A DNA stretch of 64,000 bases, taken from NCBI GenBank assembly GCA_031288595.1, contig JAITRB010000003.1, forward strand, positions 27,861-91,860, written 5' to 3'. The stretch is from Puniceicoccales bacterium (lineage in GTDB: Bacteria > Verrucomicrobiota > Verrucomicrobiia > Opitutales > JAIRLG01). Below, piece after piece: positions 5,801 through 61,229 of this stretch. Made by a program: the position numbers and the translations under genes. Position 1 is the stretch's first letter. Every line of letters starts with the position of its first letter. The notes below the pieces were generated by a model, which was given only the letters and a program-made list of their open reading frames with translations, did no database searches and was not told the DNA's origin.

Positions 5801-5939
5801 GCTGCTCAGTCCGCAGGGGCAGAAGATCCGCGGTCTTCGTGCCGATGTGAAGGCGCAGAGAATGCCGGACTACCTAGATCCGAGCCATCCGCAGCAGGGA
5901 CGAAGGTTCATCTTACGCCCTGTTCGCTGGTCGAGATAG
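2865..5939 (+). CDS. Large (about 1010-1024 aa) membrane-anchored protein with a GspK/pseudopilin-like N-terminal hydrophobic segment; function unknown
   Basis: The N-terminus ...GGFSMLLVLSSITVLLLWIIF is a prepilin-like segment without Glu+5. The motif RYAYWIEDESQKA recalls large verrucomicrobial 'cassette protein A'/GspK-like proteins (from memory, not verified). Confidence 0.45.
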   Translation: MGRGKQTYAPSGGFSMLLVLSSITVLLLWIIFINFCSVFVRERQQKHRSHERLQLCAEYALQDALQHLQSAAAADQRVSARAEIFDATDDGVPESQRLWTGVWRTELEGRVQDTPQFFSWLVSHPHEAGACQYIHNEAFPRTQLEDKNSYAWSSDEWNSPQVIRAPWVDIRDSESHLIGRYAYWIEDESQKACCTLPHRENLEAEVLRSCPPQNGTDFLDGLSRFPQSSPQLSSCETLEELEARHPDFQVTGSDNPSIRSLRFYEHDLSCCSKGLLTDSCNGGFRKDLTAFFQEAAPAPPYPALTEEIFRVENADPEPAPSWGILRNFARLGEGVVSGKREAQLATKTYTPIDYKDYSSWQRSDLPREELQIPEVSPLAPIITHFSLLIRVKKMALDTSSGNGSLRFEFIPQLTLYNPHNVTLNPRTYRFSYKSLKDRTPQAAIRAVLLSPGTAEESRVTLALGGASGIFWELLSCTASVGELPAGQSVTMGLGDSWPSTEMNGGKALLSGGQGAFTHDWNFRLQDISPWWAMSLSSFALVVERIPGITAGSGSMSNGWQHFYLFLQDETSLAQEVAKVQIEDGSSSAPKSVEQKLLSMPLDMSSVPLFGLSACLKSDREVDCSGNNGMRWLAEGNPRASWMGRSQLQDGDYMAPNPMIPAIGNAGLSNWHWSAKWLPTDNLSNLNVLPPGNSFSGILFDIPRKDFGVLNLAFLQHANVTPFGYHPAYAIGNSLQAPRIAREAAFRKNSAGPLWVSHCKVEMLYDYSYLLNRALWDSYFLSAVRDGKSLNPRLWPWKVKEDLGNILNPWNDRASRLYIRGAFNVHSTSVSAWFAVLCGLYDSREDKVSFGRFPGKSTGRIQLSRDQLWSLAEGIVVEVKRRGVVSGLSDFINRRLVDKNSPQAAQGLKGALQTAIDASLHGAEVQVNSTRDMAGFDDEAASGDRSFGRADYLTQADLLQSLGTFLTARGDSFTIHVCTELLSPQGQKIRGLRADVKAQRMPDYLDPSHPQQGRRFILRPVRWSR

Positions 5940-6408: not shown

Positions 6409-6504
6409 GCCGACTGGCTTTGCCATGGGCGAAGGGCAGCTGCCCTTCGCCCCTGGCGGCCCGCGCAGCGGGCCCGATTTCTCCGAAATCGAAAGCCAGT
6501 CGGC
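6409..6504 (+). repeat. Cloverleaf palindromic repeat CLR-A, copy A2
   Basis: Outer stem gccgactggcttt/aaagccagtcggc. H1 is ggcgaagggcag/ctgcccttcgcc (perfect). H2 is ggcccgc-gca-gcgggcc. H3 is cgatttc-tcc-gaaatcg. Confidence 0.85.
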
Positions 6505-6557: not shown

Positions 6558-7418
6558 ATGCCGGCGATGACTCTATCTTCTCTGTTGGATCGGGCCGTGC
6601 GTTTTCTGCAGGGCCGAGGCGTGGCAGCGGCACGGGTCGAGGTCGAATGTCTGCTGGCCCATGTACTGGATTGCCGGCGCTGCGAACTCCATCTGCGCCT
6701 GAGGGAAAAGGTCGAACGGGCTCTGCTGGCTGAATTTCTTCCCCTATTGCGCCGCCGTGGCCGGCGCGAACCGCTGGCTTATATTCTGGAGGAATCCGAC
6801 TTCCATGAGCTCTCGCTGCGCTGTGACCGGAGGGCGCTCATCCCGCGACCCGAAACGGAAGAGCTGGTCGAATGGCTGCTGGATCGATGGGAAAAAAATC
6901 CTCCGGCCCATGTCTTGGATCTGGGGACCGGCAGCGGGGCCATTGGCCTTGCCCTAGCCAAGGCTTTCCCGAGTAGCCGCGTGACGGCCGTCGACATCGA
7001 TCCGGAAGCATTGCTGCTGGCGAAGGAGAACGCAGAGAGCAATCGAGTGAGCAACATCCACTTCGTCCGCTCGGATTGGTTCGAGAAAATCAGGGGTCGC
7101 TTCGACCTGATCGTGGCAAACCCTCCCTACCTGACGGCGGAGGAGCTGGAGAGTGCCGAGCCGGAGGTTCGGGATTATGAGCCGAGAAGAGCGCTGGGCG
7201 CAGCTGAGGAGGGACGTGCCGAGCTGCTACGCATCTTGAGGAACGCGAGAGATTTCATGACCCCCTCGGCCTGGCTGGTGATGGAAATGGGCATCGCCCA
7301 CGGGGAGCTTCTGAAGGGAGAAGCCGAAAACTTGGGCTTCTCCACCGTGCGAATTCGCCACGACCTTTCGGGTCGACCGCGCTTTTTCCTGACGAGTCAA
7401 GGGCCGCTTGCGTTCTAG
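6558..7418 (+). CDS. prmC: Peptide chain release factor N5-glutamine methyltransferase
   Basis: It has the SAM motif VLDLGTGSGAIG and the catalytic IVANPPYL (NPPY). The start is moved to ATG 6558 because the track's 6420 start reads through repeat A2. Confidence 0.85.
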   Translation: MPAMTLSSLLDRAVRFLQGRGVAAARVEVECLLAHVLDCRRCELHLRLREKVERALLAEFLPLLRRRGRREPLAYILEESDFHELSLRCDRRALIPRPETEELVEWLLDRWEKNPPAHVLDLGTGSGAIGLALAKAFPSSRVTAVDIDPEALLLAKENAESNRVSNIHFVRSDWFEKIRGRFDLIVANPPYLTAEELESAEPEVRDYEPRRALGAAEEGRAELLRILRNARDFMTPSAWLVMEMGIAHGELLKGEAENLGFSTVRIRHDLSGRPRFFLTSQGPLAF

Positions 7419-7951
7419 GGCTTTTCGAGAAATTTCGGCGTTTCCTGCGGCGCAATTGCCCGAGACAGCAGCGGCGCTGACAAGTGCTGCGAGCGCAGAA
7501 ATCCGCTTACGAAAAGGTGAATCTTTAGCTTTTTCGCCACCCCAAGCTCATCGACCAGGAGGCGCTGCAGTTCGAACTGGAGACGCGAGCCCAGGTCCTG
7601 CAGCGACTGCTGTTGGAGCATTTTGAAGTAGATGCTGAGCTCGATGCGACGGTGCTGGACTCGGATGACGATGTGGGGTCTCGTCCGGATGCCCTGGTCG
7701 AAGCAGGTCTGGATGAGGAGGTCTTTGAGGGCTGATTTCTGCAGGAATATCTTCCCCACCTTTCCCTGTACAAGACAGAGCTTTCGGTAGGGATGCACCA
7801 AGAGGTGGTAGACGCGCAGGAGAATCCAAAGGAGAAGGAGATAGCGAAGGGGCAGGCTGTGGTAAATGTCATGGAACAACGAAGCCCAGTCCATATTCCA
7901 CAGAATTTCGTGCAGCTCGAAAAACCAGCGATTGACGGCACCTAAATCCAT
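7415..7951 (-). CDS. Hypothetical membrane protein
   Basis: This is a 178-aa ORF with one hydrophobic segment (LRYLLLLWILLRVYHLLV). It lies 10 nt downstream of sufU on the same strand. I recognise no family. Confidence 0.45.
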   Translation of the reverse strand: MDLGAVNRWFFELHEILWNMDWASLFHDIYHSLPLRYLLLLWILLRVYHLLVHPYRKLCLVQGKVGKIFLQKSALKDLLIQTCFDQGIRTRPHIVIRVQHRRIELSIYFKMLQQQSLQDLGSRLQFELQRLLVDELGVAKKLKIHLFVSGFLRSQHLSAPLLSRAIAPQETPKFLEKP

Positions 7952-7961
7952 GAGTTCTCCT

Positions 7962-8396
7962 TCAATTTTCTTTTCTTACGGCTTCATCAAAAGCATGCCA
8001 GGCCAGTGTGGCGCATTTCACGCGCATGGGAAATTTTTTTACGCCTTCCAAAGCCAGCAGTTCGCCCTGGTTTTGAAAAAATTCCGGATCTCCTCTATCG
8101 CAGAGGGCTGCCTGCAGCTCAGCGGAAAATCGCTGTGCCTCCGCCAAGGTCTGGCCCAGAAGTTTTTCGCTCATGAGGGAGGCGGAAGCCCTGGAGATGG
8201 CACAACCTTCTCCCTGAAAACTGATGTCCTCAATTCTATCCGACTGAATGCGCAGGAAGACCTGAAGCTCATCGCCGCAGTTGGGATTGTGGCCTCTGGC
8301 CCAATGAGTGGCATCGCTCATCGCCTGGGCATGGCGTGGGTGGCGATTGTGCTCCAGAATGATCTCCTGATAGAGCTCTTGCAGTGGACTGTCCAT
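7962..8396 (-). CDS. sufU: SUF-type Fe-S cluster assembly scaffold/sulfur acceptor (SufU/IscU-like)
   Basis: LYQEIILEHNRHPRH, NPNCGDEL, GEGCAISRASASLM and RVKCATLAWHAF are typical SufU/NifU-N motifs. Confidence 0.8.
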   Translation of the reverse strand: MDSPLQELYQEIILEHNRHPRHAQAMSDATHWARGHNPNCGDELQVFLRIQSDRIEDISFQGEGCAISRASASLMSEKLLGQTLAEAQRFSAELQAALCDRGDPEFFQNQGELLALEGVKKFPMRVKCATLAWHAFDEAVRKEN

Positions 8397-8539
8397 CGAT
8401 GGCGAGAAGAGTGAGGTGAGAATTTTTTTAGAGAAAAGCTTTTAGCGAAAGGCAATGGGAAAATTTTTTTAAAACCCTTCGGAAGGGAATGCATTGCCTT
8501 GAAAGTGTTTCCCAGGCGCCTTAGGGGAGGCGTTTATTT

Positions 8540-8799
8540 TTGTTCACAGGGTTGAGGTGAATAACCTGTGAATATTTTCCGCTTGAGACAGAGACTTTTC
8601 TCGCATAGCCCCCTCCTCGGGGCTTCCCATTCAGGCGATGAGGAAAGATTAAGCCCCTGGTCTTTCTCCCACAAATCCTAGGTTGGATGCGTGATAAGTG
8701 TTGTTTTTCAATCGGAATGAGATCCCTGTGTGCCGCCGGAAGAGGAAACCGGGAGTTGACGTCCACGGGCGAATAAGTTTCAAGTAGGGCTGTGAATAA
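8540..8799 (+). promoter_or_regulatory. Cluster of DnaA-box-like 9-mers upstream of dnaA (dnaA promoter region or candidate oriC)
   Basis: TGTGAATAA 8791-8799 has 1 mismatch to TGTGGATAA. TTGTTCACA 8540-8548, GGTGAATAA 8556-8564 and TGTGAATAT 8567-8575 each have 2 mismatches. AT-rich tracts lie at 8421-8475. Confidence 0.3.
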
Positions 8800-8814
8800 C
8801 TTCCAAAACCCCTC

Positions 8815-18345: not shown

Positions 18346-20322
18346 ATGGAAATTTCGGAACAGTCTAGCTGGCAGCTGGTGGCCCATAGCGCCCGTGGAC
18401 TGGTGATGGACATGGTCGCAACGGCGAAGTCGGGTCACCTGGGCACGCCATTGGGCTTGGCCGAGCTGGGAGCTGCCCTCTGGGGGAAGCTCCTGCACTA
18501 CCATCCTCGGGAACCCCGTTGGATGGGGCGTGACCGTCTAGTGCTCTCCGCCGGCCATGCCAGTGCTTGGCTCTATGCCTGGCTCCATCTGGCGGGCTAC
18601 GAACTTTCCATCGACGAGCTACGCTCCTTTCGCCAGAAAGGGAGCCGGACTCCCGGCCATCCCGAATTCGGCCGAACCCCTGGGGTAGAGTGCAGCACCG
18701 GCCCATTGGGGCAGGGTATCGGCAACGCGGTGGGAATGGCCGTCTCGGCCAAAATGCTGGCGGCGCGATTCGACACGGCTTCCTCCGGGCTCTTCGACTA
18801 TCGGGTGATCTGCGTCTGCGGTGATGGTTGTCTGCAGGAGGGCCTTTCTTCGGAGGCCTGCTCTCTAGCTGGCCTATGGCATCTGAACAACTTCATCCTT
18901 CTCTACGACGCGAACCAGGTCACGCTGGATGGCCCGTTGGCTCTCTCCCAGAACGAGGATGTGGTCCGACGCTTCGAGGCCTATGGCTTCGATGTACAGG
19001 AAATCGATGGCCATGACCTCACAGCTATCGTGCGGGCCTACGCCCAGGCCGCCCGTTCGGCTGAGCGTCCCCAGCTCATCATCGCCCATACGGTCATCGG
19101 TCGAGGCATAGTGGCCATCGAGGGCAGTTCCAAGGCGCATGGGGAGAGTGGGGCGCTCTATGCCCGGGAATTGCGCGAGAAGCTCGGACTTGGCCCGGAG
19201 CCCTTTTCCGTAGCTCCGGAGATCCGGGAATTTTTGAGGCAACAGCAAGGGCAACAGCTCACCTATTATCGGGATTGGCAGGAACGATTCGGGGATTGGA
19301 AACGGAAATTTCCGGGAAAAGCGGAGGAGCTGAGATCTCTAAGCGCTGGAGAGGATTTCGATTTGGCCGAAGGGGCAATCCCTGCCACGACCTCTCCGGA
19401 GGCCACGCGGAGCAGCTCCGGACGCATTCTGCAGGTTCTTGCCGAGCGGAACAGCTCCCTCGTTACAGGTAGCGCCGATCTCTTCAGCTCCTGCCGAAAT
19501 TACCTCGCATCGGCCGGAGACTTTTCCTCCTCCGATTTTGGGGGACGAAACCTGTTCTTCGGCGTGCGGGAGCAGGCCATGGGTTCCATCCTGAACGGCA
19601 TCGCCTATGACGGATTTTTTCGGCCATCGGGCTCCACTTTTCTCGTGTTTTCAGACTACCTGCGCCCGGTCATACGCCTGGCCGCCCTGGCGCACCTGGC
19701 CATCGTCTATGTCCTGACACACGATTCGGTTCTAGTCGGAGCGGATGGTCCGACGCACCAACCGGTGGAGCAGCTCGCTGCGCTGCGCTGTATCCCGAAC
19801 CTCGATGTCATCCGGCCAGCCGATGCGGAAGAAGTGCTGGGGGCCTGGCAGGCGGCCCTGGAGAGACGTGAAGGGCCTACGGCGCTGGTTCTTTCCCGCC
19901 AGGAGCTGCCGCCATTGGAAGGGCTTCCGGCCGCTCTGCGCCGGCAGGGTGTGAAGCGAGGCGCTTACATCGCCAGAGAGGAAACGCTGCCCCTTCGGAA
20001 AATCCTCCTGGCGACGGGCAGCGAGCTGGCACAGGCCCTGGAAGTCGGAGCGAAATATCCGGATACACGGGTCGTCTCGATGCCCTGTATGGAGCGCTTC
20101 GAACGGCTCAGCCCGGAGGAAAAAGAAGCCGTCTTGCCAGCCTCCTGTCGCAGAAGAGTGGCGATGGAGGCGGGTTCCGCTCAACCTTGGTATCGTTATG
20201 TGGGTGCGGAGGGGCGCGTCCTGAGCGTCGAGGATTTCGGGTTCAGCGCACCGGCCGAGGAACTGCGGGAACATTTTGGCCTGACAACCCTCCGCCTGGA
20301 GGCAATTTTGCAGGAGCTTTAG
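18346..20322 (+). CDS. tkt: Transketolase
   Basis: SGHLGTPLG, the GDGCLQEG ThDP motif and HDSVLVGADGPTHQPVEQLAALR are present. The protein is 658 aa. Confidence 0.9.
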   Translation: MEISEQSSWQLVAHSARGLVMDMVATAKSGHLGTPLGLAELGAALWGKLLHYHPREPRWMGRDRLVLSAGHASAWLYAWLHLAGYELSIDELRSFRQKGSRTPGHPEFGRTPGVECSTGPLGQGIGNAVGMAVSAKMLAARFDTASSGLFDYRVICVCGDGCLQEGLSSEACSLAGLWHLNNFILLYDANQVTLDGPLALSQNEDVVRRFEAYGFDVQEIDGHDLTAIVRAYAQAARSAERPQLIIAHTVIGRGIVAIEGSSKAHGESGALYARELREKLGLGPEPFSVAPEIREFLRQQQGQQLTYYRDWQERFGDWKRKFPGKAEELRSLSAGEDFDLAEGAIPATTSPEATRSSSGRILQVLAERNSSLVTGSADLFSSCRNYLASAGDFSSSDFGGRNLFFGVREQAMGSILNGIAYDGFFRPSGSTFLVFSDYLRPVIRLAALAHLAIVYVLTHDSVLVGADGPTHQPVEQLAALRCIPNLDVIRPADAEEVLGAWQAALERREGPTALVLSRQELPPLEGLPAALRRQGVKRGAYIAREETLPLRKILLATGSELAQALEVGAKYPDTRVVSMPCMERFERLSPEEKEAVLPASCRRRVAMEAGSAQPWYRYVGAEGRVLSVEDFGFSAPAEELREHFGLTTLRLEAILQEL

Positions 20323-20354: not shown

Positions 20355-20453
20355 GGGCTGTCTTTGCAAGGGGCTCCGGAGGGCAGCTTATGCCCTCCGG
20401 ATCCCCTTGAGGCCCGCGCAGCGGGCGATTCCTTTGGAATCCAAAGACAGCCC
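20355..20453 (+). repeat. Cloverleaf palindromic repeat CLR-A, copy A4
   Basis: Outer stem gggctgtctttg/caaagacagccc. H1 is caagggg(c)tccggagggca-gctta-tgccctccgga(t)ccccttg. H2 is gcccgc-gca-gcgggc. H3 is gattcc-ttt-ggaatc. Confidence 0.85.
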
Positions 20454-22410: not shown

Positions 22411-22510
22411 GCTTAGCGCCTTTGAGCCCCCAGGGGGGCTCATGCCCGCTTCGCGGGCTGCGGATGAAAAAATGAAAATTTTCATTTTTTCATTCGCAAA
22501 GGCGCTAAGC
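22411..22510 (-). repeat. Cloverleaf palindromic repeat CLR-A, copy A5 (inverted order)
   Basis: Outer stem gcttagcgcctttg/caaaggcgctaagc is a perfect 14 bp. H3 is gagcccc-cagg-ggggctc. H2 is gcccgc-ttc-gcgggc. H1 is gcg(g)atgaaaaaatgaaaa/ttttcattttttcat(t)cgc. Confidence 0.85.
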
Positions 22511-24372: not shown

Positions 24373-24475
24373 TTCGCCGCCTTTGCGGGGAGAAACATGG
24401 AAAGAACCCTTTCCATGTTTCTCCCCGAGGCCCGCGCAGCGGGCCGGGAGCCCTTCGGGCTCCAAAGGCGGCGAA
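24373..24475 (+). repeat. Cloverleaf palindromic repeat CLR-A, copy A6
   Basis: Outer stem ttcgccgcctttg/caaaggcggcgaa is a perfect 13 bp. H1 is a 19-bp perfect stem, cggggagaaacatggaaag-aacc-ctttccatgtttctccccg. H2 is ggcccgc-gca-gcgggcc. H3 is ggagccc-ttc-gggctcc. Confidence 0.9.
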
Positions 24476-28971: not shown

Positions 28972-29062
28972 CCTCGCCAGCGATCCCAAAACTTTTAAGT
29001 TTTGCTGCTGCGCTCCGCGCAGCAGGCGCTGGGCGGGAGCCCAGCGCGGATCGCTGGCGGGG
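28972..29062 (-). repeat. Cloverleaf palindromic repeat CLR-B, copy B1
   Basis: Outer stem cctcgccagcgatc/gatcgctggcgggg. Hairpins are caaaactt-tt-aagttttg, ctgctgcgc-tcc-gcgcagcag and gcgctgggc-ggga-gcccagcgc. It matches the reverse complement of B3 at 89 of 91 positions. Confidence 0.9.
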
Positions 29063-30419
29063 CCGTCGTTTGCCCTTTTTCCTGCCGCTCCCGCTTCAGC
29101 TGCTTCCAGTGCTCCAGTCGCTCCGCAATGCTCGCTTCAGCCCCCACCTGTTTGGGGAAGTAAAAGGTTTTTGGCTGCAGCATGAACTCCTGTCCGGAAA
29201 TATTTTCCTCAAAATCGTGACTGTAGCGGTAGTCCTGAGATTGGCCCAGTTGCTTGCCGATGGCCGTGCTAGCATCGCGCAACCACAGCGGTACCGCCTG
29301 TGTTCCTTCCTGACGGATGCTCTCCCGAGCCCTGTTCAGGGCGAGGTAAGTGGAATTGCTCTTGGGAGCAGTGGCGAGGAAGACGGTCACATGGGCCAGG
29401 TTCAGAGCGCATTCCGGCAGGCCGACGCGTTCACAGGCATCGAAGCAGGCGGCGGCCAGAGGCAGGGCCCGGGAATCGCCTAAACCGACATCCTCGGAGG
29501 CCGCGATGAGCAGCCGGCGGGCGACGAAGCGCGGGTCTTCGCCACCCTCCAACATCTTGGCCAGCCAGTAGAGGGCCGCATCCGGAGCGCCTCCGCGGAT
29601 GCTCTTGATGAAGGCGGAAATGGTATTATAATGCTCATCCTCGTCCGCGTCATAGCGAATCTGCCTCTCTTGGGCAAAGAGCGCCAGGTCGTCGAGGCCC
29701 AGTTCCCTTCCCATGGGAAGGCTCATGACAAGGGTTTCCAACGCATTCAGGGCCCGACGCAGGTCACCATCGCAGAATCGGGCGAGTTGGAGAAGAACTT
29801 CCGGCCCAGCCGAGCACTGGGTGTTCCCCAGACCCCGGATCTTGTCCTGAAGGGCCAGGACTAGTACAGCGACGACCTCGCCCTCGGAAAGTGCTTCCAA
29901 ATGGAAGAGCTGGCTGCGACTCAGCAGCGGAGGGATGATGGAGAAGCCGGGGTTGTGCGTCGTAGCGCCGAGGAGCCGGACACAGCCGCTTTCGAGATCA
30001 GGCAGGAGAAGGTCCTGCTGGGCCTTGTTGAAGCGGTGAATCTCGTCGATGAAGAGGAGGGTCGAGCACCGGAGATTTCTTCGGGCCGTCTGGAGGATTT
30101 CCCGCAGCTCGCTGACATTGGATGATACGGCATTGAGGGGGACGAGTTCGAGCTGTGTCTCCCGGGCGATGACTTCGGCCAGCGAGGTCTTGCCGCAGCC
30201 GGGTGGGCCGTAGAAGAGAAGGCTGCCGAAGGAGTTCTGACGGATGAGCTTCGGCAAAAGGCAATCCTCGCCCAAAATCTGCTGCTGGCCCACCATTTCT
30301 TCCAGACGGCGTGGCCGCAGCCGGGTGGCCAGTGGCACATAGCGCCGCAGGCCTCCATTCTCCTCATCCGCTGAGTTCTGAGACCACCAGTCCCCATCTG
30401 CCGGAGGAGAATCTTTCAT
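28995..30419 (-). CDS. rarA: Replication-associated recombination protein A (RarA/MgsA AAA+ ATPase); last ~22 codons lie inside repeat B1
   Basis: It has Walker A GPPGCGKTSLA, LLFIDEIHRFNK and the C-terminal MgsA domain (DEHYNTISAFIKSIRG, YRYSHDF). Confidence 0.9.
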   Translation of the reverse strand: MKDSPPADGDWWSQNSADEENGGLRRYVPLATRLRPRRLEEMVGQQQILGEDCLLPKLIRQNSFGSLLFYGPPGCGKTSLAEVIARETQLELVPLNAVSSNVSELREILQTARRNLRCSTLLFIDEIHRFNKAQQDLLLPDLESGCVRLLGATTHNPGFSIIPPLLSRSQLFHLEALSEGEVVAVLVLALQDKIRGLGNTQCSAGPEVLLQLARFCDGDLRRALNALETLVMSLPMGRELGLDDLALFAQERQIRYDADEDEHYNTISAFIKSIRGGAPDAALYWLAKMLEGGEDPRFVARRLLIAASEDVGLGDSRALPLAAACFDACERVGLPECALNLAHVTVFLATAPKSNSTYLALNRARESIRQEGTQAVPLWLRDASTAIGKQLGQSQDYRYSHDFEENISGQEFMLQPKTFYFPKQVGAEASIAERLEHWKQLKRERQEKGQTTAPPAIRAGLPPSACCAERSSKT

Positions 30420-31213: not shown

Positions 31214-31312
31214 AGGCTGCCGCCTTTGCGCGCGATGGGGATGAAATTTCATCCCCCTCGCGCGTTGTCCGCAAAGCGGACGGAGCCCGAAGGGCTCCAA
31301 AGGCGGCAGCCT
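31214..31312 (+). repeat. Cloverleaf palindromic repeat CLR-A, copy A7
   Basis: Outer stem aggctgccgcctttg/caaaggcggcagcct is a perfect 15 bp. H1 is cgcgcga(t)ggggatgaaa/tttcatcccc(c)tcgcgcg. H2 is the variant gtccgc-aaa-gcggac. H3 is ggagccc-gaa-gggctcc. Confidence 0.9.
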
Positions 31313-32273: not shown

Positions 32274-32365
32274 GGGACTGCCTTTGCGCCGAAGCCCCCT
32301 AAAAGGGGGCTTCGGCGAGGCCCGCCTTCGGCGGGCCGCTTCCTGCGGAAGCCAAAGGCAGTCCC
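32274..32365 (+). repeat. Cloverleaf palindromic repeat CLR-A, copy A8
   Basis: Outer stem gggactgcctttg/caaaggcagtccc. H1 is cgccgaagccccc-taaaa-gggggcttcggcg. H2 is ggcccgcc-ttc-ggcgggcc. H3 is gcttcc-tgc-ggaagc. Confidence 0.9.
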
Positions 32366-36109: not shown

Positions 36110-36205
36110 CTCCCCGCCAACGATCCGCGCTGGGCCAAAGGCCCAGCGCCTGCTGCGCAGAGCGCAGCAGCAAAGCTTAAAAGCTTTGGGATCGTTGGTG
36201 GGGAG
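36110..36205 (+). repeat. Cloverleaf palindromic repeat CLR-B, copy B2 (diverged, with paired substitutions)
   Basis: Outer stem ctccccgccaacgatc/gatcgttggtggggag. Hairpins are gcgctgggcc-aaa-ggcccagcgc, ctgctgcgc-aga-gcgcagcag and caaagctt-aa-aagctttg. Confidence 0.9.
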
Positions 36206-39043: not shown

Positions 39044-39061
39044 TATCTGGGCGCTTTGGGG

Positions 39062-39152
39062 CTTCGCCAGCGATCCGCGCTGGGCTCCCGCCCAGCGCCT
39101 GCTGCGCGGAGCGCAGCAGCAAAACTTAAAAGTTTTGGGATCGCTGGCGAGG
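39062..39152 (+). repeat. Cloverleaf palindromic repeat CLR-B, copy B3
   Basis: Outer stem tcgccagcgatc/gatcgctggcga. Hairpins are gcgctgggc-tccc-gcccagcgc, ctgctgcgc-gga-gcgcagcag and caaaactt-aa-aagttttg. Confidence 0.9.
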
Positions 39153-39180
39153 AAAACAGAGAACGACTTCTGGAGGGAAG

Positions 39181-40221
39181 ATGCATTGGGCTTCGTTGAG
39201 TGAAGAGCCTTGTCAAAGGAGAAGAAGCTTGCAAAAAGGACTCTCTTTGTCGGAGGCCATTCGAGTCGAATCTCTGAGCAAGCGCTATGGGAAGCTCATC
39301 GCGGTGGATGGGATTTCCTTCAGTGTCCAGGCGGGCGAAGTCGTGGGGTTTCTGGGCCCCAATGGGGCAGGCAAGTCTACGACGCTGAAAATCCTTGCCG
39401 GTTTATTGGAGGCAGAGGCAGGACGAGTTGCCCTTTTCGGCCAATCGGTAGCTGAAAATCCCCGCATCGCCAGTGCCCATATAGGCCTGATGCTGGAGAA
39501 TAACCCCTTACCAGGGAAACTGCGGGTCGGTGAGTACCTGCGCTTCCGGGCACGGATGAAAGGCGTCGCCTCGGAGAGCGTTTATCAGCATGTCGAAAAG
39601 ATCATGCGCTACTGCGACCTCTACCACAAGGCGCGGCACCGGCGCATCACCTCACTTTCCAAGGGCTTCCGCCAGCGGGTTGGGGTGGCGGAGGCCCTTT
39701 TGGGTAGTCCGCAAATCGTCATCCTCGATGAACCGACTATTGGCCTAGACCCGCACCAGGTTCTACTCTTCCGCCAGCTCATCGAGGCCTTTCGGAGCCA
39801 CTACACTTTCGTGATTTCCAGTCACATTCTTTCCGAAATCGAGGCCATTTGCGACCGCATCCTCATCCTCCACCAGGGTCGCTTGGTGGCCGACGGCAAT
39901 ATCGTCCAGCTGAGAAGGGAATTCGCGCCGGAGGCGACCCTAGTTCTGCAGCTGTCGGGGGATGCCCGCTCACTTCAGGCCTTTGAGCAGCGCTACCCAC
40001 AGTGGAACTACCGCCGGCTCAAGGCGGACTTATTGGCCGATACGCAGCAGATGGCCATCGATTTCAAGGATTGCCTGGAGGAAAGGCGTGCCGTATGGGA
40101 GGCGATTTTTTCTTACCGCGACTGGAAGGTGTTGGGCCTGGAGGAAAAAAGGGCGACGCTGGAGGACATTTTTCTGGCGGCCACGCGGCGCCATTGGGAT
40201 GAAAAATCGCTGAAGGGATGA
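39181..40221 (+). CDS. ABC transporter ATP-binding protein (ABC-2/export type)
   Basis: It has Walker A GPNGAGKST, signature LSKGFRQR and Walker B IVILDEPT. The exact start is uncertain. Confidence 0.8.
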   Translation: MHWASLSEEPCQRRRSLQKGLSLSEAIRVESLSKRYGKLIAVDGISFSVQAGEVVGFLGPNGAGKSTTLKILAGLLEAEAGRVALFGQSVAENPRIASAHIGLMLENNPLPGKLRVGEYLRFRARMKGVASESVYQHVEKIMRYCDLYHKARHRRITSLSKGFRQRVGVAEALLGSPQIVILDEPTIGLDPHQVLLFRQLIEAFRSHYTFVISSHILSEIEAICDRILILHQGRLVADGNIVQLRREFAPEATLVLQLSGDARSLQAFEQRYPQWNYRRLKADLLADTQQMAIDFKDCLEERRAVWEAIFSYRDWKVLGLEEKRATLEDIFLAATRRHWDEKSLKG

Positions 40222-40985
40222 AAAGATTCTGTTTCCTGTGCGCCAATGAGGCCCGTCTGTTGGGCTATTCCTCCGTGAGCCATATTGGGGCGGCGGCCTT
40301 TCTGTTCGCCATGGGCTTCCTCTTCCTCTTTCTCCTGGAGGAATATACCCGATTCGCGCAATCGGAGCTTTTGGCCATAGCCTTTTTCAAGGCCTTTTGG
40401 ATTCCGAGCCTCTTAATCATTCCGGCCATCACCGCTTCCCTTTTCGCCGAACGCTTGGGGGATAGGAGCTTTGCTTCCCTGCGCATCCTGCCGATACGCC
40501 TCTCGTCCATCCTTCTCGGCGATTGGCTAGTCGCTTATGCTTATTACCTGAGCCTGTGGGCCATCGCCATGCTCTTCCCCTGGATGGCGCAAGTCCTGTT
40601 CCCCGAAATCGGCAGGTCCATGCCCTTTTTTCCCCTGTCCTGTGCCCTGGGAGGCTATGCTTTCATCGCCCTGAGCGGGAGCTTTTTCATCGCCATCGGT
40701 CTGTTCTGCTCCTCACTGTTGAGAAGCTCCCTGGTGTCAGGCGTGCTGAGCTTCGCGTTTCTCCTGGCCCACTTCCTCTCCGGCGAGGGGCTCCGGCAAC
40801 TGGAAGCCCTGCGGGGAAAATCCTTTGGCCCTCCTTTTCTCTCTCCGGATTTCTATAACGTCTTTCTCCAGATGGAGGATTTCTGCCGCGGCATCATCGA
40901 TACGCGGGTCATCGCCTTCTATCTCGCCGGAACACTTTTCTTCCTCTTTTTGGCTCACCTCATGCTGGACCGACATTCCGTCTGA
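40218..40985 (+). CDS. ABC-2 type transporter permease
   Basis: This is a multi-TM 255-aa protein. It overlaps the ATPase gene by 4 bp (ATGA). Confidence 0.6.
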   Translation: MKRFCFLCANEARLLGYSSVSHIGAAAFLFAMGFLFLFLLEEYTRFAQSELLAIAFFKAFWIPSLLIIPAITASLFAERLGDRSFASLRILPIRLSSILLGDWLVAYAYYLSLWAIAMLFPWMAQVLFPEIGRSMPFFPLSCALGGYAFIALSGSFFIAIGLFCSSLLRSSLVSGVLSFAFLLAHFLSGEGLRQLEALRGKSFGPPFLSPDFYNVFLQMEDFCRGIIDTRVIAFYLAGTLFFLFLAHLMLDRHSV

Positions 40986-41020: not shown

Positions 41021-42031
41021 TCAGAATGGGAAACTCGGGTGTTCCAGTGCCCTCATGGGATGGCTGGGCAGGACGCTTCCCCAGGGGAAAGAATGTCCGA
41101 GCAGGAAGGAGGTAACAGGCATGCATTTTCCTCCAGGGATCTGAATCTCTCTTAGGAACAAGTACTTCCCATCGCCGGCGACAATGGCAGCCTGACGAGG
41201 GGGGATGGATAGCAGGGTTCCTGCTTCCTTGTCGCAGAAAGATGATGGACCCACATCCGTCGAGCAGATTTTATAAATCCTATCGCCGAGCTCAAAAATA
41301 CAGCCAGGCCGTGGGCTCAGCGCGCGAATCCGCCGGTGCAGAACTTCTGCCGGCGCGTGGAAATCCAGGAATCGGTCGCGGGTCTCGAGTTTCCGGCAGT
41401 AGCTGACTTTGCTGCTATCCTGCGGATGGTATTCGGCCGTACCCGACAGCAATTGCGGCAGAAATTGCTCAGCCAGGGATCGGGCCGCATGGCTCAGCTT
41501 GGCCGTTAGCTCGGTCTGGGTATCGAAGAAATCGATGGGGACAGAGAGCGAACCCAGGCAATCCCCAGCATCCATGGCCGCGGTGATTTCCATCAGGCTC
41601 ACGCCTGTTTCGGCGGCCTCCGAGGCCAGGGCCGCTTCCGTTGGGGTCGCTCCGCGGAAGCGCGGGAGCAGGGAGGCATGGAAGTTGAAAATGCCCAGGC
41701 GTGGGCATTCACGAATGGACTTCCCTATCATCTGCCCATAGGCCATGACGAGGAGCAACTCACAGGACTGTTGCTTCAACCATTTCAACGTCCCTTCATC
41801 CAACTTCTCAGGCCGATGGAGAGGAATTTTTCGCTCCAGGGCCCATTGGGCAACCAGGGTCGGTTTTGAGCTCTTTCCCCTTCCGCTAGGTCGATCGGGT
41901 TGGCTGATGATGCCCCTTAGGCGTAGGTGCTGGGCCAGCACGTCTTCCTGATGGAGGAGATCCAACAGCGGCAGGGCGATGGAATGGGAAGCGGCGAAGA
42001 TGACGGAGGGAATGCTCTCAGGCTTGGGCAT
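41021..42031 (-). CDS. fmt: Methionyl-tRNA formyltransferase
   Basis: SQPDRPSGRGK and FNFHASLLPRFRGATP are present. The start is moved to ATG 42031 because the track's 42163 start reads through repeat C1. Confidence 0.85.
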   Translation of the reverse strand: MPKPESIPSVIFAASHSIALPLLDLLHQEDVLAQHLRLRGIISQPDRPSGRGKSSKPTLVAQWALERKIPLHRPEKLDEGTLKWLKQQSCELLLVMAYGQMIGKSIRECPRLGIFNFHASLLPRFRGATPTEAALASEAAETGVSLMEITAAMDAGDCLGSLSVPIDFFDTQTELTAKLSHAARSLAEQFLPQLLSGTAEYHPQDSSKVSYCRKLETRDRFLDFHAPAEVLHRRIRALSPRPGCIFELGDRIYKICSTDVGPSSFCDKEAGTLLSIPPRQAAIVAGDGKYLFLREIQIPGGKCMPVTSFLLGHSFPWGSVLPSHPMRALEHPSFPF

Positions 42032-42057
42032 TTTTTGCTCGGTTGTGCAGATTTTGC

Positions 42058-42152
42058 GCGACGGCCCCTTGACAGAGTCAAGGGCAAGCTTCCCGCTCCG
42101 CGGGAAGCTTGCGGTCAGCGCCCGGCGAAGCCGGGCGCTGACTGGCCGTCGC
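42058..42152. repeat. Cloverleaf palindromic element CLR-C (singleton in this window)
   Basis: Outer stem gcgacggcc/ggccgtcgc. Hairpins are ccttgac-aga-gtcaagg, gcaagcttcccgc-tcc-gcgggaagcttgc and gtcagcgcccggc-gaa-gccgggcgctgac. Confidence 0.8.
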
Positions 42153-42248
42153 ATGAAGAACAAGAGAGCCTCCCCATCGATTCTTGCCCCTAGGGCTGAA
42201 AGTGGCCATTGTATACTGAGCAGTCCCCGCCTTTTTCTGAGCTCCTTA

Positions 42249-43565
42249 TCAGAAAAGGAGGTATTCCTGTGGGAACCAGGGTCTGAGGACTTTAGGAATG
42301 GCTACGCTCTTCCGGTCTTCCCGTAAAGAATTTTCGAGCAGGGCGGCCAAAACGCGCGGGACAGCGAGACCGGAACCATTGAGGGTGTGAAGGAAGGCGG
42401 TCTGGCCCGCTTTCCCATTCCGAAAGCGGATATGGGCCCGACGCGCCTGAAAGTCGCTAAAATAGCTGCAGCTGGAGACCTCCAGCCAGCGCTTCTGCCC
42501 ACCGGCCCACACCTCCAGATCGTACTGCTTGGCGTGCGGAAAGCCCATGTCGCCCGTGCAAATCTCCAGAACGCGGTAGGGCAGTTCCAGTTTCTGCAGC
42601 AGGACCTCTGCATCGGCCCGAAGAGATTCGAGCTCTTCCAGGCCTCGATCGGGATCTACCCATTTGACCAGTTCCACCTTGTCGAATTGGTGAAGGCGAT
42701 TGAGTCCCCGCACTTCTTTCCCCCAACTGCCGGCTTCGCGGCGAAAGCAGGGTGTATAGGCACAGCGGTAAATCGGCAGTTCTTTCGCCTCAAAAATCTC
42801 ATCGCGGAAGAAGTTGGTGACCGGTACTTCGGCCGTCGGTATGGCGTAAAATCCATCCTCAGATGCCCGATACATCTGGCCCTCCTTGTCCGGCAGCTGT
42901 CCGGTAGCCCTCGCACTGGAAACATTGACGAAGAGAGGCGGCATGAGCTCGACATAACCCCTGCTCCTCGCCTCTTCGAGGAAGAAGGCGATGAGCGCCC
43001 GGACGAGACGGGCCATATCACCGACGTAAAAGGGGAAACCGGCTCCGCTCACCTTGACCCCACGGGCGAAATCAATCGCCTTCTCAAAGCCGGGAATCTC
43101 GTAATGGGGCATGGCATGAGCTGAGACCTCTTGGGGCCTATAGGGCTCATGTGAATCCTCTTCGGCCTTCCTTAAATCCCGATAGGGCTGGGGGATCTCC
43201 CGATTATCTTCGGCCGTTGCTCCTAATGGTGTGGAGGAATGCGGGAGGTTGGGGATGGCCGCGAAGGCCTCTTCCCAGCGCGCTTCCAGCAGATGCAGGG
43301 TCTCTTCCTCTGTCTTCAGCCGCAGGGAAAGTGCCCGCAGCCGCTCCACTTCGGAGTGAAAGGTTTCGGAGGATTTCTCGACGTGCGACAGGGCCTCACT
43401 GGCCCTATTTTGCTCCGCCCGCAGGGCCTCGACTCGGGAAAGCAGCTGGCGCCACTCGAGGTCAAGGGCGAGAAAAGCATCGAGGTCTCCGTCGAATTTC
43501 TTCTTGGCCACACCCTCCCGCAGGAGATCTGGATGGGCCCGGCACCATTGAATGTCCAGCGTCAT
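42249..43565 (-). CDS. serS: Seryl-tRNA synthetase
   Basis: It has an N-terminal coiled-coil arm and class II motifs (YTPCFRREAGS, LNGSGLAVPR). The protein is 438 aa. Confidence 0.9.
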   Translation of the reverse strand: MTLDIQWCRAHPDLLREGVAKKKFDGDLDAFLALDLEWRQLLSRVEALRAEQNRASEALSHVEKSSETFHSEVERLRALSLRLKTEEETLHLLEARWEEAFAAIPNLPHSSTPLGATAEDNREIPQPYRDLRKAEEDSHEPYRPQEVSAHAMPHYEIPGFEKAIDFARGVKVSGAGFPFYVGDMARLVRALIAFFLEEARSRGYVELMPPLFVNVSSARATGQLPDKEGQMYRASEDGFYAIPTAEVPVTNFFRDEIFEAKELPIYRCAYTPCFRREAGSWGKEVRGLNRLHQFDKVELVKWVDPDRGLEELESLRADAEVLLQKLELPYRVLEICTGDMGFPHAKQYDLEVWAGGQKRWLEVSSCSYFSDFQARRAHIRFRNGKAGQTAFLHTLNGSGLAVPRVLAALLENSLREDRKSVAIPKVLRPWFPQEYLLF

Positions 43566-46046: not shown

Positions 46047-46150
46047 GGGTGCAGCGCCTTTAGAGGCCTTTGGGCTCTCGCCCGCTGCGCGGGCTGCGCC
46101 CAGGGAAGAAAAGAAATTTCTTTTCTTCCCTGGGCGCAAAGGCGCTGCCC
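46047..46150 (-). repeat. Cloverleaf palindromic repeat CLR-A, copy A9 (inverted order)
   Basis: Outer stem ggg(t)gcagcgccttt/aaaggcgctgccc. H3 is agag(g)cc-ttt-gg(g)ctct. H2 is gcccgc-tgc-gcgggc. H1 is a perfect 21+21 palindrome, gcgcccagggaagaaaagaaa/tttcttttcttccctgggcgc. Confidence 0.85.
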
Positions 46151-52610: not shown

Positions 52611-52718
52611 TTTTTTTCGCTGTCTTTGGAGCCCGCAGGGGCTCGCCCGCGGAGCGGGCCTCAGCGCCGGAAACAAAAGTTCCTTTTATTTCCGGCGCTG
52701 CAAAGACAGCGAAAAAAA
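52611..52718 (-). repeat. Cloverleaf palindromic repeat CLR-A, copy A10 (inverted order), flanked by T7/A7 runs
   Basis: Outer stem tttttttcgctgtctttg/caaagacagcgaaaaaaa is a perfect 18 bp. H3 is gagccc-gcag-gggctc. H2 is gcccgc-gga-gcgggc. H1 is cagcgccggaaa(c)aaaag-ttc-ctttt(a)tttccggcgctg. Confidence 0.9.
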
Positions 52719-52756: not shown

Positions 52757-54016
52757 CTAGGCTGGTCTCCGCAGGCAGGCGCGGTGGTTTTGCAAAATGC
52801 TTCCCAGCATGTAGAGCGAACCGGTGATCAGTTTCTTCTCGATACCTTGGAGCAAGGCTCCGATCCGTGACAGGGAAAGGACATGGGATTTTTCTAAAAA
52901 CCGGGAGGGCAGGCAGTTCAGCAGCTCTTCGGGCGAAAGATGTCGCTCGTAGCCATCAGCGACGAGAAAAATTTCCCTGAATTGAGGGGCCAGGACCTCC
53001 AGCATCGCCCGGGCACGAATGGCTTCAATCGATCCGAAAATGAGCTGGCTAAAGGGTTTTCCCAGAAATCTGTAGCGGTCGATTTCCCGCAAAATGGCCT
53101 CGGCCCCCTCAAGGTTATGTGCCCCGTCGAAGACGATCTCTCCGCCGGCCTCGTTGCCAAAGCATTCCCAACGGCAGGGCCAGTAGAAGCGGGGCGATTC
53201 TCGATGCCAGAGCTTGGGAGGCACGGGAAACTTTTCCTGCAACTGCCCCACAACAGCCTTTGCCGTAGCCAGGTTATCCCGCTGGTAGAGGGGTAGATGG
53301 GCGTAGTGCTGTGCCCATTCCTCCTCGCCGATGCTGGAGCTTGAAGCCCATAGGATGGGGACTTCTCGTATTTGAGCTTCTTCCCGAAGCACGGTCAGGG
53401 CCTCGCCCTGAATATTGCCCAGCACGAGTGGAATTTTGGGAAGGAGAATGCCGGCCTTTTCACGGGCGATCTCTCCCAAAGTCTCGCCCAGATACAACTG
53501 GTGGTCGTAGTGGATTGTCGTGATAACGCTCAGGTCGGCGGCCGTCGCCGTCGTCGCATCGCAGCGTCCTCCCAGGCCGGTTTCCAGCACGACGATTTCC
53601 GGACGCTGTTCCTTAAAAAAGGAGAGCGCCATCGCCGTTAAGTACTCGAAATGCGAGATGGGGCTTTGAGGATTGCGCTTCTCCCAGTCCTGGGCGATGG
53701 TCTGCAGCTTTTGGAATTGCCGCATAAAATCCTCTCGAGATATAGAGGTCCCCGAAATCTGGATCCGCTCCCGAATGTCCAGCAGGTGCGGTGAGGAGTA
53801 GAAACCCACTTTATAGCCCGCCTGATGATAGACATGGGCCAGAATGGCACAGACGGAACCCTTGCCATTGGTACCGGCCACATGGATGACGAAGGAGGGG
53901 AGTCGCCGTGTTTTACTCGAGTCCAGAAGATACTGAATGCCTTCCAGGGTATAGTGCCTATGTACCGGCCGGTGCTCGAGAAAATGGACGATGCTCTCGA
54001 AATCAAAGAGATCCAT
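52757..54016 (-). CDS. folC: Bifunctional folylpolyglutamate synthase / dihydrofolate synthase
   Basis: VIHVAGTNGKGSV and the Mur-ligase family layout are present. The protein is 419 aa. Confidence 0.85.
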   Translation of the reverse strand: MDLFDFESIVHFLEHRPVHRHYTLEGIQYLLDSSKTRRLPSFVIHVAGTNGKGSVCAILAHVYHQAGYKVGFYSSPHLLDIRERIQISGTSISREDFMRQFQKLQTIAQDWEKRNPQSPISHFEYLTAMALSFFKEQRPEIVVLETGLGGRCDATTATAADLSVITTIHYDHQLYLGETLGEIAREKAGILLPKIPLVLGNIQGEALTVLREEAQIREVPILWASSSSIGEEEWAQHYAHLPLYQRDNLATAKAVVGQLQEKFPVPPKLWHRESPRFYWPCRWECFGNEAGGEIVFDGAHNLEGAEAILREIDRYRFLGKPFSQLIFGSIEAIRARAMLEVLAPQFREIFLVADGYERHLSPEELLNCLPSRFLEKSHVLSLSRIGALLQGIEKKLITGSLYMLGSILQNHRACLRRPA

Positions 54017-59306: not shown

Positions 59307-59404
59307 CTTCGCTGTCTTTGGATTCCGAAGGAATCGGCCCGCTGCGCGGGCCACGAGCTTTTCCGCAAAGGCTTCTTTGCGAAAAAGCTCGAAAGACAGC
59401 GAAG
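59307..59404 (-). repeat. Cloverleaf palindromic repeat CLR-A, copy A11 (inverted order)
   Basis: Outer stem cttcgctgtcttt/aaagacagcgaag. H3 is gattcc-gaa-ggaatc. H2 is ggcccgc-tgc-gcgggcc. H1 is cgagctttt(c)cgcaaag-gctt-ctttgcg(a)aaaagctcg. Confidence 0.9.
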
Positions 59405-61125: not shown

Positions 61126-61229
61126 TTTTGTCGCCTTTGGAGCCCAAGGGGCTCTCGGCCCGCTGCGCGGGCCGTTGGGGAGAAGCAGGGAAAAGCCTTT
61201 TCCTGCTTCTCTCCACAAAGGCGACAAAA
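61126..61229 (-). repeat. Cloverleaf palindromic repeat CLR-A, copy A12 (inverted order)
   Basis: Outer stem ttttgtcgcctttg/caaaggcgacaaaa is a perfect 14 bp. H3 is gagccc-aag-gggctc. H2 is ggcccgc-tgc-gcgggcc. H1 is ggggagaagcagg(g)aaaag-cc-cttttcctgcttctctcc, with one G-T pair and one bulge. Confidence 0.9.

Follow-up and report, generated by a model that had tools for sequence, protein, structure and literature searches.

The spacer between the genes serS (seryl-tRNA synthetase) and fmt (methionyl-tRNA formyltransferase) contains, at 42058-42152, a 95-nt sequence that folds into a closed four-way junction. The 64 kb of DNA studied here, called the window, come from a metagenome-assembled genome of the Puniceicoccales (Verrucomicrobiota). 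The locus raises the question of what such an element is, what keeps it folded, and whether it belongs to the two genes beside it or to something more widespread. We favor, at a probability of roughly 0.5, the reading that the serS-fmt element is an old, fixed copy of a lineage-specific class of nested palindromes resembling repetitive extragenic palindromes (REPs), in which the single-strand fold is maintained and whose likely effect is to place a very stable, orientation-independent structure between cistrons.

The serS-fmt element and its class

The element is a real, perfectly paired, cloverleaf-shaped fold. Its outer-stem half on the fmt side, GCGACGGCC (42058-42066), pairs over 9 bp with GGCCGTCGC (42144-42152, plus strand) on the serS side, and three hairpins lie between them: a short arm of 7 bp, CCTTGAC-AGA-GTCAAGG (42067-42083); a middle arm of 13 bp, GCAAGCTTCCCGC-TCC-GCGGGAAGCTTGC (42084-42112), which carries a CCCGC-N3-GCGGG core; and a long arm of 13 bp, GTCAGCGCCCGGC-GAA-GCCGGGCGCTGAC (hairpin at 42114-42142), with the loop context C-GAA-G. 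An optional G-T pair at the base of the long arm (G 5', T 3') extends that unit to 42113-42143. As RNA, the plus strand of 42058-42152 folds into the four-way junction at -83.6 kcal/mol (z = -10.9, with none of 200 shuffles as good) and the minus strand at -82.3 kcal/mol (z = -11.0); as single-stranded DNA the same interval reaches -54 kcal/mol (z = -11.4), and the fold is retained inside 261 nt of native context. The layout given in the preliminary description, a 9-bp outer stem around triloop arms of 7, 13, and 13 bp, is therefore borne out by the sequence and by folding of both strands.

Both flanking genes are on the minus strand. The serS gene (42249-43565) ends with its stop codon 96 nt from the element, and fmt (41021-42031) begins with its start codon 26 nt from it. 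That second distance, also claimed earlier, depends on where fmt starts, and the ATG is fixed by the 336-amino-acid product, which matches, with 100% identity from end to end, a protein annotated at NCBI (P0001) from a Puniceicoccales metagenome-assembled genome. Because of this match, a mechanically called open reading frame (ORF) that runs through the element from a TTG at 42163 is not the gene; an annotation with that long ORF is wrong, and the fmt start at 42031 is right.

The architecture recurs throughout the window. A strict descriptor, which required an outer stem and three adjacent hairpins, each perfectly paired over 6 bp or more, matched the window 7 times; 50 shuffles that preserved dinucleotide composition gave no match, nor did 20 shuffles scanned at relaxed settings. 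When a few mismatches were allowed, in a descriptor based on RNAfold, the count rose to 18, against 0, 0, 1, 0, 0, and 0 in six shuffles. It had been proposed that the claim should fall if shuffled sequence gave such folds at a comparable rate, and real folds far exceed shuffles (17 to 18 versus about 0). All but one of the 18 are intergenic; the remaining one (18458-18557, inside the transketolase gene tkt) has a weaker, imperfect three-hairpin fold and is probably a false positive, of which the six shuffles also gave one. The 17 elements measure 82-101 nt, carry three arms each, occur about once per 3.8 kb, and occupy ∼2.5% of the window DNA. The serS-fmt element shares the features of the class, namely, a closed outer stem, three adjacent hairpins, no more than 3 unpaired junction bases, and a length within 82-101 nt. 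The claim that size, topology, and triloops recur across differing sequences thus holds for 17 copies, and 47 of 72 hairpin loops are triloops.

Thirteen of these copies form a main family, with an outer stem of ...GC[CT]G[CT]CTTTG/CAAAG..., a short arm of GAGCCC-N3-GGGCTC or GATTCC-N3-GGAATC, and a middle arm of (G)GCCCGC-N3-GCGGGC(C). They lie at 1408-1502, 6409-6504, 16139-16226, 20355-20453, 22411-22510, 24374-24474, 31214-31312 (between divergent genes), 32274-32365, 46051-46148, 52617-52712 (between convergent genes), 59307-59404, 61129-61226, and 62324-62406. Their long arm is highly variable, at 12-20 bp with usually a 4-nt loop, and its 5' half is purine rich when the element is read short-middle-long, e.g., GGGGAGAAACATGGAAAG and GGGGAGAAGCAGGGAAAAG (examples inspected at 24386-24427, 46095-46138, 61176-61215, and 22459-22498). 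The serS-fmt element is the sole copy of its own type, termed CLR-C, in the window.

The remaining three copies constitute family A. The copy at 39064-39150 is identical, at 85 of 85 nt, to the reverse complement of the copy at 28975-29059, which is thus inverted relative to it, and the match goes no further than the outer-stem foot. In the third copy (36110-36205), one arm and the outer stem carry compensated changes relative to these two. No target-site duplication or flanking motif was found at the two identical copies or at main-family copies. Since the identity stops at the stem foot and no target duplication accompanies it, the elements have spread, or have been homogenized, as discrete folded units. 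The copy at 28975-29059 overlaps the last ∼21 codons of a rarA/mgsA-like ORF (28995-30419, minus strand), whose MgsA_C domain ends at residue 439 of 474 and which takes its stop codon from the element (tail ...APPAIRAGLPPSACCAERSSKT, then stop). The element appears to supply the C-terminal tail of this ORF, so that members of the class can provide the last codons of a gene.

Orthologs upstream of fmt and maintenance of the fold

Besides the window's Fmt, just six proteins fall within 64-83% identity to it, the next best reaching 47%. From contigs for five of them (L004, which is JGI 3300042618, and L005, L006, L007, and L018) we compared, with the window, six orthologous sequences, two of which end inside the element. 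The element lies 26-35 nt before the fmt start in all five related contigs; by the preliminary description, the claim would fail for an element that is unique and not conserved in relatives, and these orthologous copies show it to be conserved. In L004, which is syntenic with the window over 18.9 kb, the CLR-C type is again single copy. The outer stem is conserved in sequence as well as in shape: a block reading GGGCC[G/A]TCGCGCAA is invariant in all six sequences. On the sense strand, the conserved half beside fmt is GGCCGTCGCGCAA (42054-42066, minus strand), 4 nt longer than the coordinates given before. The relatives' outer stem measures 13-14 bp (TTGCGCGAYGGCC(C)), and the window has lost the four outermost pairs on the serS side.

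The arms tell a different story at each distance. In L005, whose Fmt is 83% identical, they are homologous to those of the window and differ only by compensated double changes: GCAAGCTT.../...AAGCTTGC is exchanged for GCAGGCTT.../...AAGCCTGC; the middle arm, with its compensated double change, reads GCAGGCTTCCCGC-GGA-GCGGGAAGCCTGC; and the short arm reads CCTTGGC-GGA-GCCAAGG on the sense strand against CCTTGAC/GTCAAGG, a compensated A-T to G-C replacement. The spacer from the element to the ATG is only ∼65% identical in this relative. In L004, L018, and L006 (Fmt 64-69%) the arm sequences are unrecognizable and still form hairpins, with 3- to 8-nt loops; the copies in L004 (z = -9.3), L006 (z = -9.6), and L018 all give a four-way junction. 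The window's short arm resembles CTTTGC-TTT-GCAAAG of L004 and L018, which is the 3' arm there, and the same arm is 5' and reverse complemented in L006 (CTTTTGC-AAA-GCAAAAG). We conclude that in L006 the interior has been inverted between the outer inverted repeats, with the outer stem left in place.

One close pair of relatives, L004 and L018 (Fmt 88% identical, fmt third codon positions 70%), provides a calibration. Their outer stems agree at 26 of 26 positions, their short arms at 15 of 15, and their middle arms at 28 of 30, while the 30 nt down to the ATG agree at 26 of 30 and the spacer upstream of the element at ∼60%, with gaps; the tip of the long arm has been replaced with its pairing kept. 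Since the outer stem and these two arms are far more conserved than synonymous sites, this pattern argues for purifying selection acting on most of the element, with one arm turning over quickly through paired changes. In the main family, 94% of alignment cells are standard pairs, 24 of the 32 pairs have changed on both sides, and 107 double-change cells stand against ∼12 G-U cells, a result reached by 0 of 500 shuffles, with slid controls only ∼45% paired. On the evidence of the orthologous copies upstream of fmt, the shape is maintained while the arm sequences change.

Orthologous spacers elsewhere show both retention and turnover. The tsaD-lpxD spacer keeps a main-family element in both genomes (46051 in the window, 3286-3386 in L004), as does the spacer of a glycosyltransferase-gene pair (32274 and L004 17589-17689), where the two copies share an atypical short arm differing by compensated changes. 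Some long arms are also related between genomes (window 22459, GAAAAAATGAAAA...; L004 11078, GAAAAAATGCAAAGC...), so the "hypervariable" arm has subfamilies. The 155-nt rmuC-serS spacer of L004 (6236-6390) holds a main-family element; the corresponding window genes overlap by 4 nt (43562-43565). A spacer between mur-ligase and ABC transporter genes holds a family A element in the window (39044-39180) and L005 (2879-3104) and a main-family element in L004 (10724-11256) and L007 (2932-3075), a difference that is a replacement or an independent insertion at one site.

How the serS-fmt element relates to the other families can be judged from a covariance model (R1) built from the main family, which recovers 17 of 17 training copies at 60-89 bits. 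It aligns the serS-fmt element at full length on the plus strand at 18.0 bits (E = 0.12), with unrelated noise reaching 13.8 bits, and scores family A copies at 23.6 bits (E = 0.006). The preliminary description had treated the element as unrelated in sequence to the others apart from the CCCGC-N3-GCGGG core. That core is real, and in the form CCCGC-TCC-GCGGG it occupies the middle arm, the position of the main family's GCCCGC-N3-GCGGGC; with it and with the end-to-end alignment, "unrelated" is too strong. The junction-proximal CTTTG/CAAAG of main-family outer stems was not found, the outer stem here being GCGACGGCC/GGCCGTCGC, and the core is absent from the orthologs in L004, L018, and L006. 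The CLR-C element could be a far-diverged relative of the main family, and given the fast turnover of arms among orthologs, descent from a single ancestral family is no less likely than convergence of independent families on one shape.

Outside these contigs, the metagenome and viral collections yielded no true members of the class. There are no four-way junctions in the 21 kb around fmt of L008 or of the Puniceicoccales contig L009. L008 (GCA_021294815.2, CP095464.1) is a Verrucomicrobiota genome on a single 878-kb contig that carries the nearest Fmt outside the clade (47%), has no serS-fmt linkage, and is presumably a reduced symbiont. A metagenome scan with the main-family short-plus-middle-arm pattern gave no matches, although the pattern matches L004, and the collection thus lacks these samples; the pattern GCCTTTGGAGCCC-N3-GGGCTC gave 8 metagenome matches, none recognized by the covariance model. 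The window's own middle-arm pattern, AAGCTTCCCGC-N3-GCGGGAAGCTT, matched only two metagenome-assembled Ruminococcus contigs among species-representative genome contigs, as a lone palindrome with no four-way junction, so that this collection lacks either the source genome or this arm. The long-arm sequences have no second copies or "protospacer-like" matches. A viral collection scan gave no matches, and BLAST against plasmids and phages gave none. To judge from the sequences searched, the class is confined to this small Puniceicoccales clade.

The window around these elements is a housekeeping neighborhood that includes dnaA, lpxC/A/D, pfk, tkt, pgk, ligA, rpoN, metG, serS, and fmt, among others. 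The dnaA gene is at 8815-10254, and the gene-poor stretch upstream of it (∼7950-8815) could contain a replication origin. A 1,024-amino-acid ORF at 2865-5939 (plus strand) has no Pfam match at an E value of ≤1e-5, and neither do smaller ORFs at 7415-7951, 14004-14744, 40218-40985, and 52757-54016. L004 encodes a large ankyrin-repeat protein at positions 2-1447, which hints at a host-associated lifestyle of the clade.

The level of constraint and the competing explanations

In 24 elements from the window, L004, L006, and L018, the sense strand has 12 G-U pairs and the antisense strand 11, so there is no bias relative to transcription, and both arm orders are found between plus-strand genes. Wobble pairs are commoner on the strand read short-middle-long (21 versus 6; 14 versus 4 for internal pairs only, P = 0.03), a signal made weak by the fact that a single element contributes 4 of the 14 internal pairs; it is a weak hint of a strand-specific folded form. 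Of the 47 triloops, 30 belong to the GNA or TNC types, where ∼6 would be expected, and a 5'-C...G-3' pair closes 39. Most tetraloops read AATT or AGCT or are A/T rich and do not follow GNRA or UUCG, which makes the hairpin a perfect DNA palindrome. The d(C-GNA-G) loop is a classic hyperstable DNA mini-hairpin, known from the single-strand origins of phages, the termini of parvoviruses, and the telomeres of Streptomyces. Such a scarcity of G-U pairs is unusual for a structure selected only as RNA. The covarying outer stems of the main family pair only when the whole unit is single stranded; extrusion of the inner palindromes as cruciforms in duplex DNA would not explain them. Taken together, these observations point to a constraint at the DNA level or one that treats both strands alike, to which any RNA-level effect would be added. 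It could come from selection on both strands, from a DNA intermediate in single-stranded form, from intrastrand template-switch correction, or from a combination of these.

In our favored reading, three hairpins inside an outer stem, with hardly a base left unpaired, make up the unit, which would form only when the sequence is single stranded, in transcript or in DNA. Purifying selection would keep the fold, and intrastrand template-switch correction, a known route by which quasi-palindromes become perfect, probably helps; such correction would explain both the scarce G-U pairs and the palindromic AATT and AGCT loop centers. In the transcript, the unit may form a barrier at the 3' end of the serS message and a structured 5' boundary 26 nt before the fmt start, a role drawn by analogy from REPs and bacterial interspersed mosaic elements (BIMEs), which act in this way in enterobacteria. 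The serS-fmt element would then be neither a classical terminator nor a gene-specific riboswitch. New copies may arise through a structure-specific single-strand DNA enzyme or through gene conversion.

Several results weigh against this reading. The CLR-C type is single copy in all sequence read, so that we infer its membership in a mobile family rather than observe it. The outer stem of the serS-fmt element has one covarying pair, probably a single event and not significant, so its support is conservation. The scarcity of G-U pairs and the triloops of DNA type hint that the constraint may act on DNA, in which case a role between cistrons would be a by-product. A 3' barrier would serve no purpose for the element at 31214, whose flanking genes diverge. 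Finally, a Pfam scan of 48 window ORFs turned up no partner: no transposase or RAYT (REP-associated tyrosine transposase), no integrase, and no HUH domain.

Other explanations can be set against the same evidence. The elements may be selfish palindromic DNA with no cellular function that spreads in whole units, is perfected by intrastrand template switching (in which one arm is copied from the other), and persists under weak deletion pressure. We regard this as doubtful, and yet several observations speak for it: covariation that is almost wholly Watson-Crick (near-perfect pairing of this kind can also arise from a DNA-level palindrome-correcting process), palindromic tetraloop centers, two identical copies whose identity ends at the stem foot, presence that varies among relatives at the rmuC-serS and mur-ligase/ABC spacers, and orientation independent of transcription. 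Others count against it. In L004 and L018, stem plus short and middle arms are 69/71 (97%) identical, against 70% for fmt third positions and ∼60% for the spacer; template switching within tight hairpins cannot keep the two halves of the outer stem, separated by 77 nt, complementary and unchanged across six lineages; and 3 of 3 orthologous spacers checked keep the same kind of element at an Fmt identity of 66%. The preliminary description proposed a partner that recognizes shape, and the closest version of that idea is a functional single-stranded DNA junction in replication, repair, or transposition, the substrate of a structure-specific protein (e.g., an HUH-type single-strand transposase or a junction-binding or -resolving protein) that maintains and propagates the elements. 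The enriched C-GNA-G and C-TNC-G triloops, the near lack of G-U pairs, wobble pairs that follow element orientation and not transcription, duplication exactly from stem foot to stem foot with no target duplication, and an interior inversion like the flip and flop of the adeno-associated virus (AAV) terminal repeat all fit it. We nevertheless consider it rather unlikely, as no candidate enzyme was found in 64 kb and there is no conserved cleavage motif or GTAG/CGTC tag and no obvious bias in main-family orientation on either side of dnaA, while the wobble asymmetry is weak and the loop types are partly inherited and so not independent observations. A bolder and unlikely proposal is a class defined by shape, made up of closed four-way junctions folded on one DNA strand or its transcript, in which a junction-specific protein would recognize the unit, excise or copy it at the outer-stem foot, and flip it; arm sequences would be free, with only topology and a few loop and closing-pair features specified, and the result would be a new sort of single-strand mobile or punctuation element, distinct from REPs and from miniature inverted-repeat transposable elements (MITEs).

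Explanations centered on the two genes fare worse. A gene-specific 5' leader RNA that regulates fmt through protein or ligand binding or through translation control would fit the constant position, 26-35 nt before the start in six sequences, and the conservation of the fmt-proximal outer-stem half with the bases that follow it. It is improbable given arm sequences that are not conserved, an interior inverted in one lineage, essentially no conserved unpaired nucleotides for a binding pocket, the same architecture at 16 unrelated window loci, and the lack of an Rfam match. No consensus match to an fmt promoter was found upstream of or within the element. An intrinsic (Rho-independent) terminator for serS is more improbable again. 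In its favor, the structure is very stable and GC rich and follows a stop codon, a stop also precedes most elements by 20-100 nt, and canonical hairpin-plus-T terminators are not enriched in the window. However, no T-run follows the element on either strand (no such site occurs in 41900-42400, and the sequence after the element is GCAAAATCTGC), some copies have T-runs upstream and A-runs downstream that extend the stem instead, and one copy separates divergent genes. Counts of hairpin-plus-T-run sites in window positions 1-60000 against shuffled sequence were 25 versus 20.5, 30 versus 21, and 28 versus 24.8, and canonical intrinsic terminators seem scarce in this genome. A chance fold or assembly artifact has a close to negligible probability: public short-read contigs do tend to break at these elements, but no shuffle folds as well, and independent JGI, NCBI, and Logan assemblies carry the element or its orthologs. 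Such contigs start or stop inside elements at both ends of L001, in L005 (1-62 and 3060-3104), and in L007 (1-45 and 3047-3075). L001 starts at the center of the palindromic long arm of the element at 46051 and ends 15 nt into the serS-fmt element. An exact look-up of serS gave only a 4-kb Logan contig, which breaks inside two elements, and exact look-ups of the window's Fmt and of P0001 gave no contig.

Comparison with known structured and repeated elements

We found no prior description of such elements in the literature searched or in Rfam. No Rfam 15 family reached its gathering threshold in the window except for four tRNAs, the best subthreshold hit at the element having an E value above 4; ARAGORN reported no tRNA or transfer-messenger RNA, and the Rfam tRNA model gave no hit at the element. 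The likeness to a tRNA cloverleaf lies in the four-way-junction topology and a size of ∼90 nt. The elements differ from it in having triloops instead of 7- to 8-nt D, anticodon, and T loops, stems of 7-20 bp, and no conserved tRNA positions.

REPs and BIMEs (including REPINs), the RAYT-associated repeats of proteobacteria, are along with MITEs the closest known kinds. They too are high-copy-number intergenic palindromes, often between codirectional genes, with no target-site duplications, in both orientations, folding as single-stranded DNA or RNA; they have been proposed as mRNA stabilizers or barriers and are thought to be mobilized as folded single strands. Opitutus terrae has been reported to carry GTAG-type REPs (PMC3733652). 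A REP is one imperfect hairpin of 20-40 nt with a GTAG or CGTC tag, and REPs cluster as BIMEs, whereas the elements described here are closed four-way junctions of 82-101 nt with three perfect hairpins, no consistent tag, and no RAYT seen in 64 kb. At the serS-fmt locus the unit is a 95-nt junction of perfect hairpins, and CGTC occurs inside GGCCGTCGC in the window, L005, and L006, with CATC in its place in L004, L007, and L018; the main and A families carry no GTAG or CGTC tag.

MITEs with long terminal inverted repeats (Correia/NEMIS, ERIC, RUP, Nezha, and bcr1) share a length of ∼100-150 bp, terminal repeats that pair as an outer stem, intergenic position, cotranscription with neighbors, and presence that varies among relatives. 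They have target-site duplications, interiors that are not closed hairpins, and copies usually with unpaired mismatches, in contrast to the absence of duplication at the identical family A copies and to pairing of at least 94% with compensated changes. Since the tag and short hairpin of REPs and the target duplication of MITEs were looked for and were not found, we set the elements apart from both. Integron attC sites are folded single-strand recombination sites with R and L boxes and extrahelical bases. They resemble the elements in conserved outer pairing, a variable and sometimes branched center, and recognition as a folded single strand, and differ in flanking promoterless cassettes by an integrase gene; the elements have housekeeping neighbors, perfect pairing, and no integrase.

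The nearest structural analogue is the inverted terminal repeat of AAV and other parvoviruses, a T-shaped hairpin that exists in flip and flop forms. It likewise has an outer palindrome around small palindromes with 3-nt loops, folds as single-stranded DNA, and occurs in two interior orientations; it differs in being a three-way junction at the ends of a linear single-stranded DNA genome, with Rep-binding and nicking sites, and is not a dispersed chromosomal repeat. If our reading is correct, a Verrucomicrobiota lineage that is host associated or poorly sampled spends ∼2-3% of its DNA on ∼95-nt closed four-way junctions that selection keeps folded over genus-level divergence, and the elements would explain why short-read assemblies of these genomes fragment at intergenic sites. 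Their Watson-Crick-only covariation, GNA triloops, and flip/flop interiors would offer a natural system in which to separate RNA-level from DNA-level structural constraint, and the concept of REPs and MITEs would be extended from simple hairpins to a defined multihelix topology.

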